From positions 30,001 to 62,000 of the forward strand of contig JAITBP010000007.1 in assembly GCA_031283585.1 (NCBI GenBank): DNA of 32,000 nucleotides. The letters run 5' to 3'. This document shows, in pieces, positions 1,328 to 5,396 of the stretch. The position numbers and the translations under genes are program-made. Source of the stretch: Puniceicoccales bacterium. Lineage in GTDB: Bacteria; Verrucomicrobiota; Verrucomicrobiia; Opitutales; LL51. The stretch's first letter is position 1, and the number at the start of each line of letters is the position of its first letter. The notes under the pieces were generated by a model. That model made no database searches. It had not been told where the DNA came from and worked only from the letters and a program-made list of their open reading frames with translations.

Positions 1328-3478
1328 TTAGTTTAAAGCGGCTTCAATATCATCAATGGTCCACTTAAGTTCTTGAATTCCATTCTCAACACGAGAACTG
1401 ACTGAATATAAAATAGTTTGGGAAATTTTTGCGTTTTTAATTTCTGTAAATTTATCATTAATGGTTTTCAAGACATTTTCTGCATGGGCTTTAATTTCTT
1501 TTAATTTTTCTTTATCTTCCTCTGAAGAGTTTCCTCTATAGGCTGAAATCGCTGTTGAAGCTGCCATACTTATATTTAGTGGGTTATCTTTGCTGTTCGC
1601 ATTAAGCAAGTTATCAAGATATGAATATGCGTTGTCGCCGTTAAGAATATCATTGTTGTTTTTTTCTATCTGCTTTTCTTCTGCTTCTTCTATTATCCTC
1701 AGCTCCTCTTCTTCCTTAGATGAAAGTTTATAATAATGTAATGCACTCTTCTCCTGTACAGACATTCCTTTTAGTATCTCATCATGTAATTTTTTCTCAC
1801 CACGGGAAAGATTATTTACATTGAACCTTGGATCAAACATCTTTTCCCTTAAAGATGCTTTAATATCATCTGTATTTATTCCAACCCCTTTTATATCTAT
1901 ACCATCTTTTATTACAGCTTCTTTTATTTCTACATTAGCCTTTATTTCTGGTTCAGCCTTTACACTAGCCGCATTTAGGATGGCATCAGCCTTTTCCTTG
2001 CCGATGATTCCGGCCGCCTTATCAAATATGGCCTTTTCTTCATCACTAAAGCCCTTTCCTTTGGCTCCATTACACAAATTTTTTACCTGTATTTCTATCT
2101 CTTTAGTCAAATCATCCTTGTTTATCTTTGCTTTTGCAGTGTTTTGCGTGACTGCAACTGTATCAACAGTCCTCATAAATTTATTTGTAACATTTCCAAT
2201 AGCATCTCCTATCCCACAAGAAGCTAAAGCCTTATCATAATCTATGGCATTAAACCTTCCTATTAATGTTTCTAATTTAGCACTAGCGTTTGTAGTAGAC
2301 CTCACTGTTTTCCCATCGACCATATAACAGCATGTATCAACAATAAATTTATCATAGTTCTGTCCTACCGAATCTGGAATAAAGCAAATATCACACTCTG
2401 TAGCTTTCTTTGTATCACCATCCATCATTGCTTTGACATAGTATCCAGTAACTTTATCACCATTTTCTAGAGTAACAATCCTTTCCTCCAAAGTTCCTTC
2501 TCCAAATTTGCCCCTATCTAAAACAAATTTTTGGATTTCATCACGGGATCTATTATCCATACTAACAAACTTAGGGAACTCATCATCACGTATAAATTTC
2601 GCCAATTCATCCTTCTTAGCCCCAAACATAGCTGCATTACCATTAAGCAAAATGTCATGGCATTCTGTCTTTATTAATTTCTCTATCTTTCCAATGGTCT
2701 CTTTTATTTGAGCAGTTGGATTTTCAATGGCACTTAACTCTTTATATGTATTTGATAGCTGCTCCGCAATTTTCATTTTATTTTCGGTGGTTTTGACAGT
2801 GTTGTAGGTACTGATTAGCTCTTCGGTCGACATTGGGGCGACAATTGCTCCTTTTATTTTAACAATATTATTGACTATCGTATAGTTTAGTGATATTTTC
2901 CCACCGCTATCCTTAGTATAGATTCCGGCTTCAAAGGCTTTTGATAGGTCATTATCATCATTCGAAAGGGTTTTATATATTTCTGATAAACTAATTTTTA
3001 TCGATGTTTTTTGTTCTTCGGTAGTATTATTATCCTTGTATTTTTTTATCAACTCATCTATATTTACATTATCTCCTATACCTTTATTAATACTAAAATT
3101 ACCTTCTCCGGTAGTGTACTTTTTTAGCACACTCTCGGCATCCTTACTTATTTTTGCTTTTTCATCCGCATCCATTTTAAGTAGTGTATCTGCCATTTCC
3201 TTCTTGGTTATTTGTTTGCAACTCATATCACTAAGTTGATATCTCACCCCCCAGTTTTTATTGATATTAATTTTCGAAGCGATATTTGCGAAAAATCCTT
3301 TGACCTTGCTGGTCTGGATGGCTTTTACCTTCACTTTTATACCGCTGTCTAATTCTAGTTCAGTGGCTTTTCCTTCTCCTTTATGGCTTCTTACTTCCTT
3401 ACCTATTTCTTTCAGCCGTGTGCTATAATCTTTATAATCTTGACCTTTGCTATAATCTTTATAGTTATAATCATTCAT
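1328..3478 (-). CDS. Hypothetical 716-aa K/E/N/D-rich soluble protein; candidate secreted cargo/effector, paralog of 3738-4925
   Basis: Long uninterrupted ORF with no hydrophobic segments and no enzymatic motif I recognise. Residues 18-82 align with residues 10-72 of the upstream 395-aa protein. Three degenerate internal repeats of about 33 aa are present. It lies downstream of a CesT-like chaperone gene. Confidence 0.8.
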   Translation of the reverse strand: MNDYNYKDYSKGQDYKDYSTRLKEIGKEVRSHKGEGKATELELDSGIKVKVKAIQTSKVKGFFANIASKININKNWGVRYQLSDMSCKQITKKEMADTLLKMDADEKAKISKDAESVLKKYTTGEGNFSINKGIGDNVNIDELIKKYKDNNTTEEQKTSIKISLSEIYKTLSNDDNDLSKAFEAGIYTKDSGGKISLNYTIVNNIVKIKGAIVAPMSTEELISTYNTVKTTENKMKIAEQLSNTYKELSAIENPTAQIKETIGKIEKLIKTECHDILLNGNAAMFGAKKDELAKFIRDDEFPKFVSMDNRSRDEIQKFVLDRGKFGEGTLEERIVTLENGDKVTGYYVKAMMDGDTKKATECDICFIPDSVGQNYDKFIVDTCCYMVDGKTVRSTTNASAKLETLIGRFNAIDYDKALASCGIGDAIGNVTNKFMRTVDTVAVTQNTAKAKINKDDLTKEIEIQVKNLCNGAKGKGFSDEEKAIFDKAAGIIGKEKADAILNAASVKAEPEIKANVEIKEAVIKDGIDIKGVGINTDDIKASLREKMFDPRFNVNNLSRGEKKLHDEILKGMSVQEKSALHYYKLSSKEEEELRIIEEAEEKQIEKNNNDILNGDNAYSYLDNLLNANSKDNPLNISMAASTAISAYRGNSSEEDKEKLKEIKAHAENVLKTINDKFTEIKNAKISQTILYSVSSRVENGIQELKWTIDDIEAALN

Positions 3479-3486
3479 GTTCGATA

Positions 3487-3514
3487 ATTTTATAATAATG
3501 CCTAGCTAAGTCAA
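3487..3514 (-). promoter_or_regulatory. Sigma70-like promoter candidate for the 716-aa gene (near-leaderless geometry)
   Basis: On the minus strand, TTGACT (3514-3509), a 16-nt spacer, then TAAAAT (3492-3487). Only 8 nt separate the -10 from the ATG at 3478, and there is no Shine-Dalgarno. The AT-rich background raises the chance of a fortuitous -10. Confidence 0.4.
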
Positions 3515-3737
3515 TCCAGTTTGATGGCTGCTTGTTAGTAATTTACTCCTATAGGATTGCGCCTGAAAAAATCTACCAGCGATGACCTATCACTAAAACC
3601 AATATCCTTTGGCCATTCAATTTAATTGCCAGTATCCTATATGATTTTGCACCGTCACATTCTAACCTTGTAATAGCTAGTACCCAGCAACAATCACAAA
3701 AATATGCCAGCTAATGACGACAGAGAAGTCATATGCA

Positions 3738-4925
3738 TTATAACATACTATTAGATTGCTGTTGCTGGCTTTGTTGTTTTATCGTATCGGCATATAATTC
3801 CATACTCTTAAATTCTAGATTTGTATCTGAAATGTGTTTTAGTATAGCTCCTCTTAGTTCCTGTGGCTGTTTTTCTAACTGCTCTTGTAACTGGTTTTCT
3901 CCAGTCTTAGCATTTTCTCTCGGTAGAAATACCCCATGCGAAGTTCCATCACTGTTCACAGCGGTTGAACTGAGTTTGTTGTTAGCTACTCCTATAGAAA
4001 AATTAATTCCCATCAATTCTACTTTTATCATTTTTATATCTGTACTCTTTTTGCCAGAATCATTAATAGCTTCATTAGCGATATTACTTACTTGAGTCAT
4101 TGTATCATCTAATTTCTTTATTATTTCTTTGTATTTCTCGTTCTGTTTGTCGGCAACCTCTTTGGGAATCTCCGTCATCTTCGTAGTCTCAGTACTAGAA
4201 AATTCTCCTCTATCCTTAAGATGCTTAAATGCGTTTTTTATTATATTGTTTCTATTAATTTCATCACATTCAATCATTGAACATTGTTCACCTACATTGG
4301 ATTTACCGTCCAGGTAAAGATCCTTACCACCAACATTAATGCTTACTATAAACCTCTTATCAATGCGATTTTTATCATCAGCCATGATAACCTTAAATTT
4401 TACCACACCATAATCAGCCACAACGTCCATATTGGCCACTGGATTACCATTCCTTTTATCTAGAGCTATTTCTATATAGGAACCTTGATTTTTAGAGCTC
4501 AAGAAACTTGTAACAAACGCCATGTTGAGTTGATTTAATTTGCCTTTTTCGTATTCAGTAAGACCATTATTCATACAATTATCTGTATTGTGTGCTTCAG
4601 TTAACGTATTTTCTATGGTAGTTTTATTTGCTTCACTTACTTCATTTTTGATAGAATTCAGTTTCGCCATTATTTCTTTACTTGTCATTGGAGCAGTGGA
4701 AGTGCCATCCAGTTGATATCTCACGCCCCAGTTTCTCTCGAGGCCAATTTTCGAAAGTGTGTTTGCTAAAAATCCTTTAATTTTGCTGGTCTGGACAGCC
4801 TTGATAGATATTGATGGGCCATCAGCCAAATTTAACTTGCCTATGGCTCCATCACCTCTTACAAAGGTTTTGCCAATATCTCTCAGCTGTTTGCTATAAT
4901 CTCCACCTCCTATTGGCGCACTCAT
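3738..4925 (-). CDS. Hypothetical 395-aa soluble protein; candidate secreted cargo/effector, paralog of 1328-3478
   Basis: The ATG is preceded by GGAGGA about 7 nt upstream and lies 39 nt downstream of the chaperone-like gene. The N-terminal module DYSKQLRDIGK...AVQTSKIKGFLAN...NWGVRYQL is shared with the 716-aa protein. The tail is Q-rich (QQSQQQQSNSML). No TM segments. Confidence 0.8.
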   Translation of the reverse strand: MSAPIGGGDYSKQLRDIGKTFVRGDGAIGKLNLADGPSISIKAVQTSKIKGFLANTLSKIGLERNWGVRYQLDGTSTAPMTSKEIMAKLNSIKNEVSEANKTTIENTLTEAHNTDNCMNNGLTEYEKGKLNQLNMAFVTSFLSSKNQGSYIEIALDKRNGNPVANMDVVADYGVVKFKVIMADDKNRIDKRFIVSINVGGKDLYLDGKSNVGEQCSMIECDEINRNNIIKNAFKHLKDRGEFSSTETTKMTEIPKEVADKQNEKYKEIIKKLDDTMTQVSNIANEAINDSGKKSTDIKMIKVELMGINFSIGVANNKLSSTAVNSDGTSHGVFLPRENAKTGENQLQEQLEKQPQELRGAILKHISDTNLEFKSMELYADTIKQQSQQQQSNSML

Positions 4926-4964
4926 GATAAATCCTCCATTATTATAATATAATGGTTAATTTTA

Positions 4965-5396
4965 TTAGGCTGACCGGGCTGACCGTCTTCTATGTTCCTT
5001 CAATAGTTTTTCGGTAATTGTCTGGGTGGTATAAATAAATGCTCCAAGTAGTTTTTGGAACTTTGCCGAATCAATCGTTGATATCAAGGCATGGTAGGAC
5101 AGAACGAAGAAGTTCGCAGATCTATCTATGGCCAATGTCGTGCCCACCGTCTCCACCTGAAATAAATTTAATGATAGAGCATAGTATAGCAGGCCGTCCG
5201 AATGAATCGGAACCTCGAACAACGGCGCATATATGAAAAATCTGTCGCTACCATCCGGTACCTCAAGAATAAATTCCATATCATTGAAAAAAAATTTACA
5301 TCGTCCAGTCTCATCGATGGCAAATTTTTCGTTTTTTACGCTATTTATAGAATCAAGCCATGTTTGAACTATTTCACGAAATCTTGCATTTGTCAT
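4965..5396 (-). CDS. Small CesT/SycE-like (class I type III secretion) chaperone-family protein, about 143 aa
   Basis: Size and sequence layout are typical of class I secretion chaperones: FAIDETGRCKFFFNDMEFILEVPDGSDRFFIYAPLFEVP, then LLYYALSLNLFQ, then TTLAIDRSANFFVLSYHALI, then KFQKLLGAFIYTTQTITEKL. I prefer the ATG at 5396 (AGGA 6 nt upstream) over the TTG at 5402 used in the ORF track. The related YbjN fold family cannot be excluded by eye. Confidence 0.65.
   Translation of the reverse strand: MTNARFREIVQTWLDSINSVKNEKFAIDETGRCKFFFNDMEFILEVPDGSDRFFIYAPLFEVPIHSDGLLYYALSLNLFQVETVGTTLAIDRSANFFVLSYHALISTIDSAKFQKLLGAFIYTTQTITEKLLKEHRRRSARSA

Follow-up and report, generated by a model that had tools for sequence, protein, structure and literature searches.

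The locus described here raises the question of what role is played by a small gene whose start codon lies inside the end of holB and which is followed by two large genes for hydrophilic proteins. It is located on the minus strand of a 32,000-nt stretch from a Puniceicoccales bacterium (contig JAITBP010000007.1; the whole stretch is called the window below), where the gene order is tmk, holB, a 143-aa ORF, a 395-aa ORF, a 716-aa ORF and rpsA. By sequence profile, the 143-aa protein is a member of the CesT family, and its structural model predicts the class I fold of type III secretion chaperones. On balance, it appears to act as a class I chaperone for several cargo proteins, which would form a new effector family in rapid diversification. 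This reading is favoured because a conserved CesT-type chaperone is adjoined by hydrophilic proteins without export signals, and because these carry a module of ~80 aa at the position of a chaperone-binding domain and have variable C-terminal parts.

Family and predicted fold of the 143-aa protein

The 143-aa protein matched the Pfam CesT family (PF05932) with 46.8 bits (cut-off 22) and E 3.8e-12 over residues 23–125, whilst neither YbjN nor any other Pfam family gave a match even at E≤1. In a single-sequence AlphaFold (AF2) model (predicted local distance difference test score, pLDDT, 70; predicted template modelling score, pTM, 0.64), helices were placed at residues 3–16, 67–80 and 110–142 and strands at residues 32–37, 40–45, 53–58, 86–91 and 96–101. 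This predicted order, alpha-beta3-alpha-beta2-alpha, is that of class I chaperones. A Foldseek search of the PDB with the model returned SchA, ExsC, CesT, SycN/YscB, SicP, SrcA, SycH, SycE, VecA, SpcU and InvB as top matches, with E 1.7e-5 to 1e-3 and template modelling (TM) scores of 0.55–0.64 for SchA, ExsC, CesT, SicP, SycE and others. The 18 PDB matches at E≤1e-3 were type III chaperones with the exception of three chains (3cxj_A and two of 2plg), and several of these chaperones had been solved in complex with effectors. The CesT–CsrA complex 5z38 was the fourth-ranked match. YbjN (6vu7) was found at rank 37 (E 8e-3, TM score 0.38), and the YbjN family (PF10722) was not a better identity for the protein in either Pfam or Foldseek. 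Sequence similarity to PDB entries was weak: SrcA and CesT were the best matches (E 0.1–1, with SrcA at the top at E 0.1), and a search with the chaperone alignment returned SrcA as its sole match (E 0.71).

These results bear out the initial annotation, which had described the ORF from its sequence as a class I type III secretion chaperone and had named a non-chaperone fold, or a better match to YbjN-type regulators, as evidence to the contrary. With a chaperone fold found and YbjN at rank 37, the fold therefore does not speak against that description. The acidic core that had also been described was retained in a weaker form, since the protein is mildly rather than strongly acidic (pI 6.29 in the window and 5.4–5.7 in the relatives, with a basic C-terminal tail). 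The identical GenBank sequence (MDR2735601.1), encoded on a 101-kb contig of a metagenome-assembled genome, is annotated as ‘CesT family type III secretion system chaperone’ for a Puniceicoccales bacterium. Its name in GenBank is already the correct one, whilst the cargo genes carry the label ‘hypothetical’.

Arrangement of the locus and overlap with holB

The features of the locus are listed below.

6257..6913, minus strand: tmk, thymidylate kinase (PF02223, E 4e-49), which opens the overlapping tmk–holB–chaperone run
5374..6282, minus strand: holB, DNA polymerase III delta-prime (PF13177, E 3.4e-27), with its stop codon at 5376–5374
5403..5406, minus strand: Shine–Dalgarno-like AGGA at −10 to −7 of the chaperone ATG, within the holB coding sequence (sequence reading)
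4965..5396, minus strand: CesT-family class I chaperone-like protein, 143 aa (PF05932 match; NCBI MDR2735601.1)
4932..4937, minus strand: GGAGGA Shine–Dalgarno sequence of the 395-aa gene, 6 nt ahead of its ATG (sequence reading)
3738..4925, minus strand: 395-aa cargo candidate (NCBI MDR2735600.1, LBB20_02030, ‘hypothetical protein’; ORF call)
4659..4901, minus strand: shared N-terminal module, residues 9–89 of the 395-aa protein (BLASTP, profile alignment)
3479..3737, minus strand: intergenic spacer of 259 nt before the 716-aa gene (sequence reading)
1328..3478, minus strand: 716-aa cargo candidate (NCBI MDR2735599.1, LBB20_02025, ‘hypothetical protein’; ORF call)
3182..3430, minus strand: shared N-terminal module, residues 17–99 of the 716-aa protein (BLASTP, DNA-level match)
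1952..2818, minus strand: middle domain of ~290 aa, residues 221–509 of the 716-aa protein, kept in cargo genes of two related lineages
1..1125, minus strand: rpsA, ribosomal protein S1, starting at ~1125 and running off the window edge, the downstream boundary of the cassette (translation; S1 domains on the flanking sequence L003)

The ATG of the 143-aa ORF at 5396 lies 23 nt within the 3′ end of holB, and tmk and holB overlap by 26 nt. Other gene callers place the tmk start at an ATG at 6886, which gives a 209-aa product; a product of 209 aa is also found on L001. The chaperone gene and the 395-aa gene are separated by 39 nt, and no Shine–Dalgarno sequence was found ahead of the 716-aa ATG by sequence reading. 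All of the coordinates, spacings and start sites reported in the initial annotation (the 23-nt overlap, AGGA, 39 nt, GGAGGA and 259 nt) were recovered when the sequence was read again. The 259-nt spacer contains a promoter-like TTGACT-16-TAAAAT at 3514–3487, without statistical support from the promoter scan, in which 16 promoter-like sites were counted against 21.6 expected by chance. Promoter and terminator counts were at or below chance, and no claim about transcription units is therefore made.

Three further metagenome sequences encode close relatives of the chaperone: the 65-kb contig L002, with the GenBank locus-tag prefix LBH49; L004 (JAIRXD010000030.1, isolate Gsp477_bin142); and L006, a 2.2-kb Joint Genome Institute (JGI) contig (1–2226; 3300042624, Ga0466735_097507). 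The chaperone start lies within holB in all of them, as in the window, so that the overlap first noted in the window is real and recurrent. L002 and L004 both have the complete tmk–holB–chaperone arrangement, with the chaperone start 44 nt within holB; in these two and in the window, a Shine–Dalgarno sequence (GAGG in L002 and L004) lies at −10 to −7.

Chaperone identity was 81–89 % across the three lineages represented by metagenome-assembled genomes (MAGs), with a proportion of nonsynonymous differences (pN) of 0.06–0.12 and of synonymous differences (pS) of 0.73–0.87, the latter at or near saturation. The tmk product was 78–80 % identical to its L002 and L004 orthologues, with a ratio of nonsynonymous to synonymous substitution rates (dN/dS) of 0.07–0.09, and the holB product was 62–66 % identical to its orthologues, and 62–68 % when all lineages were compared (dN/dS 0.16–0.18). 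The chaperone is thus the best conserved of the three and is under purifying selection; its conservation shows that the gene is functional and strongly constrained and has not become a relic. The arrangement of the chaperone with holB is a stable trait of the lineage. A scan of metagenome contigs with the chaperone alignment gave no match, and a scan of genome contigs with the chaperone gave one, a 2.9-kb contig.

In L006, which represents a fourth lineage, only the last ~90 codons of holB precede the chaperone, as a remnant in which the overlap is intact. The start of this contig repeats a region ~1945 nt downstream at 89–98 % identity, and its final 95 nt duplicate 1886–1980 exactly; the repeat is either a tandemly duplicated unit of holB remnant, chaperone and cargo, or an assembly loop.

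The cargo candidates and their shared N-terminal module

The products of the two large genes share a module that covers residues 9–89 of the 395-aa protein and residues 17–99 of the 716-aa protein (47 % identity, E 6e-20 by BLASTP) and has the core V/I-x-V/I...Q-x-S-K...F-F/L...W/F-G-V/I-R/K-Y-x-L/F. A Gly and a Tyr in this module (G67 and Y70 in the 395-aa protein) are invariant. At the DNA level, a 92-nt stretch of the module is 78 % identical between the two genes. No resemblance was seen outside the module, and the description of the two genes as paralogous in the initial annotation therefore holds for their N-termini alone. The other properties that had been reported were confirmed: both proteins are hydrophilic (grand average of hydropathy, GRAVY, −0.58 and −0.60), rich in K, N, E and I, and without a stretch of transmembrane grade, the highest 19-residue Kyte–Doolittle mean being ~1.0. 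Neither a Sec signal peptide nor a lipobox nor a transmembrane segment was found in the cargo proteins.

The module also lies where chaperone-binding domains had been expected (roughly residues 20–100), and it heads genes in L002 and L006 as well. In YopE, SptP and Tir, chaperone-binding domains occupy residue positions like those of the module. Polar N-termini followed by a conserved module at residues ~10–100 are compatible with effectors, and not specific to them.

No family was assigned at cut-off to the 395-aa or the 716-aa protein in Pfam, NCBIfam, PADLOC or PHROGs, and sequence and profile searches of the PDB with the cargo proteins gave no relative. An AF2 model of the 716-aa protein from a two-sequence alignment had a mean pLDDT of 45 and was confidently helical only at residues ~540–716; its best Foldseek PDB match had E 0.03, with no fold match below that value. 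By our own estimate, an open frame of 716 codons in DNA of 34 % G+C would arise by chance with a probability of ~1e-24. The 5′ end of the 716-aa gene contains an exact 16-nt direct repeat (3421–3436 and 3448–3463, minus strand, spacing 27 nt), which encodes a duplicated DYKDYS motif.

Distribution and turnover of the cargo family

Module-bearing genes adjoin the chaperone in all three loci with flanking DNA (the window, L002 and L006), and we infer that they encode its substrates. In L002, three such genes are found downstream of the chaperone (397/405 aa, 111/119 aa and 250 aa), and in L006 there is one on each side of it. The C-termini of the L002 and L006 members are unrelated or shuffled. 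The middle domain of the 716-aa protein (residues 221–509) was found again in the 397-aa protein of L002 (10333–11529; 25 % identity, E 1e-13) and in a 320-aa ORF of L006 (67–1029; 35 % identity, E 1.6e-43); its alignment had no relative in the PDB. The body of the 395-aa protein had no counterpart in any of the relatives.

On the plus strand of L002, the module-bearing 111/119-aa ORF (11704–12039) and a 153-aa ORF (12058–12519) are in one frame with a single TAA between them, and together they probably represent a single cargo gene that has recently acquired a nonsense mutation.

When 1.84 billion (1.84e9) representative proteins were searched exhaustively by HMMER with the module profile, the module was found in this locus family alone. 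Two giant proteins made up of near-identical tandem repeats, P0007 (13 stretches) and P0009 (5 stretches), were rejected as homologues because no individual domain passed the threshold, their scores being sums of sub-threshold matches, that is, repeat-amplified noise. In word-indexed searches, the 716-aa protein gave no match and the module alignment matched only the 111-aa protein of L002; a scan of metagenome contigs with the module alignment gave no match. The restriction to this lineage, the turnover of its members and their shuffled C-termini together indicate a cargo family that is confined to the clade, fast-evolving and modular.

The cargo genes also differ in composition from the genes around them: the G+C content at third codon positions (GC3) is 0.29–0.30 in the cargo genes (0.30 in the 395-aa gene), 0.40 in the chaperone gene and 0.45–0.54 in the housekeeping neighbours. 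Orphan genes on both sides of tmk–holB (1001–5000 and 7001–10000) have a G+C content of 0.33–0.37 and a GC3 of 0.29–0.37, compared with 0.41–0.52 and 0.45–0.54 in the housekeeping genes.

Source organism

The MAG L004 was recovered from the gut of a lower termite, Glyptotermes, ‘Gsp477’ denoting a Glyptotermes gut metagenome (PMC11707648). Opitutales MAGs from lower termites, in the families LL51 and UBA9783, have small genomes of low G+C content and have been described as putative endosymbionts of flagellates (Mies et al., 2024; PMC11257099). The intranuclear ‘Candidatus Nucleococcus’ is a member of this order (PMC11257099). Judging by its relatives, the organism of the window would belong to this lower-termite group of Opitutales. 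In the genomes of two cultivated Verrucomicrobia, type III systems were reportedly ‘traced’ (PMC7251102).

Proposed mechanism and alternative explanations

In the mechanism that we propose, the 143-aa protein would act as a class I chaperone of the CesT type with several substrates, which would be encoded by the genes downstream. The polar first ~15 residues of each cargo protein may serve as the secretion signal and the module of ~80 aa as the region bound by the chaperone. The route of export would be a type III injectisome with its genes in another part of the genome; once delivered, the variable C-terminal parts would exert their effect in a eukaryotic host, which is probably a termite-gut flagellate. 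Translation of the chaperone would be coupled to tmk–holB and its expression constitutive, so that it would be made whenever the cell grows, whilst the cargo set undergoes rapid turnover through duplication, exchange of domains and decay.

A wider proposal, plausible but on the doubtful side, is that a whole clade of putatively endosymbiotic Opitutales/Puniceicoccales in termite-gut flagellates uses an injectisome, and that a single multi-cargo chaperone, wired by overlap into tmk–holB, delivers a new effector family by means of the ~80-aa targeting module, with duplication of the cassette. Should the reading as a chaperone–effector cassette be right, the locus would provide a first handle on the manipulation of hosts by verrucomicrobial symbionts of termite-gut protists, whose relatives include the intranuclear ‘Candidatus Nucleococcus’. 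The module would be a ready search key for the full effector repertoire of the clade, and the start embedded in holB would represent a virulence-type chaperone placed under housekeeping expression. In a variant of the wider proposal, the clade would lack an injectisome and the conserved CesT-fold protein would act independently of any type III secretion system (T3SS), tied to replication.

Several observations weigh against delivery of effectors by the chaperone. A regular-expression search through residues 1–150 of every cargo protein found the class IB motif for chaperone binding, [LMIF]xxx[IV]xx[IV]xN, which applies to class IB substrates only, in none of the module-bearing N-termini. No eukaryote-like, effector or enzymatic domain was found in the cargo with Pfam, NCBIfam, PADLOC, PHROGs, PDB sequences or Foldseek against the PDB. 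Genes for a type III apparatus were absent from the 32-kb window and from the added flanks L003 (~3.4 kb beyond rpsA) and L005 (nothing past the window), the rest of the genome not having been searched, and no literature linking Puniceicoccales to type III secretion was found in the library searched. The structures 3cxj (Methanothermobacter) and 2plg (Synechococcus), both uncharacterised, were within the Foldseek top 16, and their sources are presumably without injectisomes; for this reason the fold alone is not proof of type III secretion. The chaperone is, moreover, merely mildly acidic (pI 6.3). The cassette of a chaperone and two effectors put forward in the initial annotation is accordingly upheld in the CesT family and fold, the holB overlap and the module, and weakened by the missing class IB motif and by the occurrence of the fold in organisms presumably lacking a T3SS.

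If the CesT-fold protein worked without a type III system, it could be a cytoplasmic holder or regulator of the module or of another partner, and the large proteins would stay inside the bacterium. There are precedents for such moonlighting, in that CesT binds CsrA and the chlamydial Scc4 binds RNA polymerase, and the high structural rank of 5z38 fits with them. The lack of an apparatus gene in the window and added flanks, the chaperone-like folds 3cxj and 2plg, and a gene that is locked by overlap into a replication/nucleotide operon and conserved at least as strongly as the operon genes are all in keeping with a role of this kind. We nevertheless regard it as rather unlikely, given that the sequence profile points to CesT rather than YbjN, that most of the top structural matches are true secretion chaperones, and that a conserved N-terminal tag on unrelated, fast-evolving orphans of low GC3 is the pattern of exported cargo and not of housekeeping partners.

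It is less probable still that the large proteins are exported or displayed at the surface by a non-type-III route, or are intracellular structural proteins, with an unrelated chaperone beside them as a legacy of gene order. The cargo proteins lack any family, fold or PDB match as well as the class IB binding motif, and the 716-aa gene, set off by 259 nt, may have its own promoter, all of which would suit such an arrangement; however, module-bearing genes sit beside the chaperone in the window as well as in L002 and L006 despite the reshuffling of the cargo, and no Sec signal, lipobox or transmembrane segment is present. A further suggestion, that the cargo ORFs represent lineage-specific DNA which is in decay or has no function (emerging pseudogenes in a genome undergoing reduction), is highly improbable. 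It would account for a cargo GC3 of 0.29–0.30 against 0.45–0.54 in core genes, for the L002 family member broken by an in-frame TAA and for the lack of homologues outside the clade, but not for intact frames of 395 and 716 codons in DNA of 34–35 % G+C or the strong Shine–Dalgarno sequence of the 395-aa gene. The module and the 290-aa middle domain are, furthermore, conserved as proteins between lineages in which the synonymous sites of the three operon neighbours are heavily to fully saturated.

Other features of the window and flanking sequences

A second lineage-specific family is encoded divergently from tmk in the window (7011–7637, 7710–8153 and 8162–8734, plus strand), in L002 (6472–6924 and 7065–7487, minus strand) and in L004 (31–615, minus strand). 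Its members are ~140–210 aa long, and most have a Sec-type signal peptide followed by a core of ~100 aa (...A..REY...); no Pfam match was found for the family. The tails are rich in Lys/Arg and resemble nuclear localisation signals (e.g. KPRRRKRPARSKNKRPVAKRM), which would be intriguing if the clade includes intranuclear symbionts. An orphan ORF of 374 aa (8857–9981, plus strand) has three acidic C-terminal tandem repeats, TAATEE[SP]EVKEATEE[SP].SQEN, and the ORFs of 341 and 351 aa at the corresponding place in L002 have no similarity to it. Two tRNA genes were identified (8746–8819 and 15213–15294, both minus strand), the first of which lies between the genes for small secreted proteins and the 374-aa orphan.

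Further along the window, a 634-aa ORF (15367–17271, minus strand) fuses a lipid A biosynthesis acyltransferase (PF03279) with a family 9 glycosyltransferase/heptosyltransferase (PF01075). A signal peptidase I of 480 aa (PF10502; 20874–22316, plus strand) has its best catalytic match at residues 334–470 and therefore has a long N-terminal extension. On L003, a partial protein of >839 aa with a PD-(D/E)XK nuclease domain (4761–7280, minus strand, ~3.6–6.2 kb beyond the window start) is encoded beyond rpsA and is not a secretion component.

Comparison with known systems

The YbjN family has a fold like that of type III secretion chaperones without a T3SS, and the overall fold class is common to YbjN (6vu7, rank 37) and the 143-aa protein. 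The latter differs in having no Pfam YbjN match at E≤1 and in its TM score of 0.38 to YbjN, compared with 0.55–0.64 to true chaperones. It has more in common with CesT of enteropathogenic and enterohaemorrhagic Escherichia coli (EPEC/EHEC) and SrcA of Salmonella (STM2138), which are multi-cargo class I chaperones of T3SSs: Pfam family PF05932, size and the alpha-beta3-alpha-beta2-alpha fold, predicted for the window protein, are shared, and like them the 143-aa protein is apparently paired with several substrates. Sequence identity to CesT and SrcA is ~15–18 %, however, and the gene belongs to a tmk–holB operon with an overlapping start, not to a secretion island, in a member of the Verrucomicrobiota. 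The cargo of the window also lacks the class IB binding motif, and no apparatus gene was seen in the window or the added flanks.

The chlamydial chaperones Slc1 (CT043) and Mcsc (CT260) are likewise small, multi-cargo and of class I, and are encoded among housekeeping genes in an intracellular bacterium of the Planctomycetes–Verrucomicrobia–Chlamydiae (PVC) group. Their effectors, such as Tarp, TepP and TmeA, are lineage-specific, hydrophilic and fast-evolving, and Slc1 is not encoded beside its substrates. In the window, by contrast, the cargo genes directly adjoin the chaperone and have one recognisable N-terminal module; no chlamydial chaperone was among the top 50 Foldseek structural matches. 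The tmk–holB context, which had initially been considered unusual for such a cassette, is real, but its oddity was overstated, because chaperone genes of Chlamydiae, a PVC lineage, are similarly scattered among core genes.

The SPI-2 (Salmonella pathogenicity island 2) effectors SifA, SifB, SseJ, SopD2, SspH2 and SlrP have a common N-terminal translocation domain with the motif WEK(I/M)xxFF. They resemble the cargo candidates in that a conserved N-terminal domain (~100 aa in Salmonella) is carried by proteins whose C-terminal domains are unrelated. The two do not resemble each other in sequence, and the module of the window is restricted to its clade and has a putative role in export. The architecture itself, a chaperone with adjoining effectors that have a common N-terminus, is of a known kind, whilst the effector-like family and its module of ~80 aa are new.

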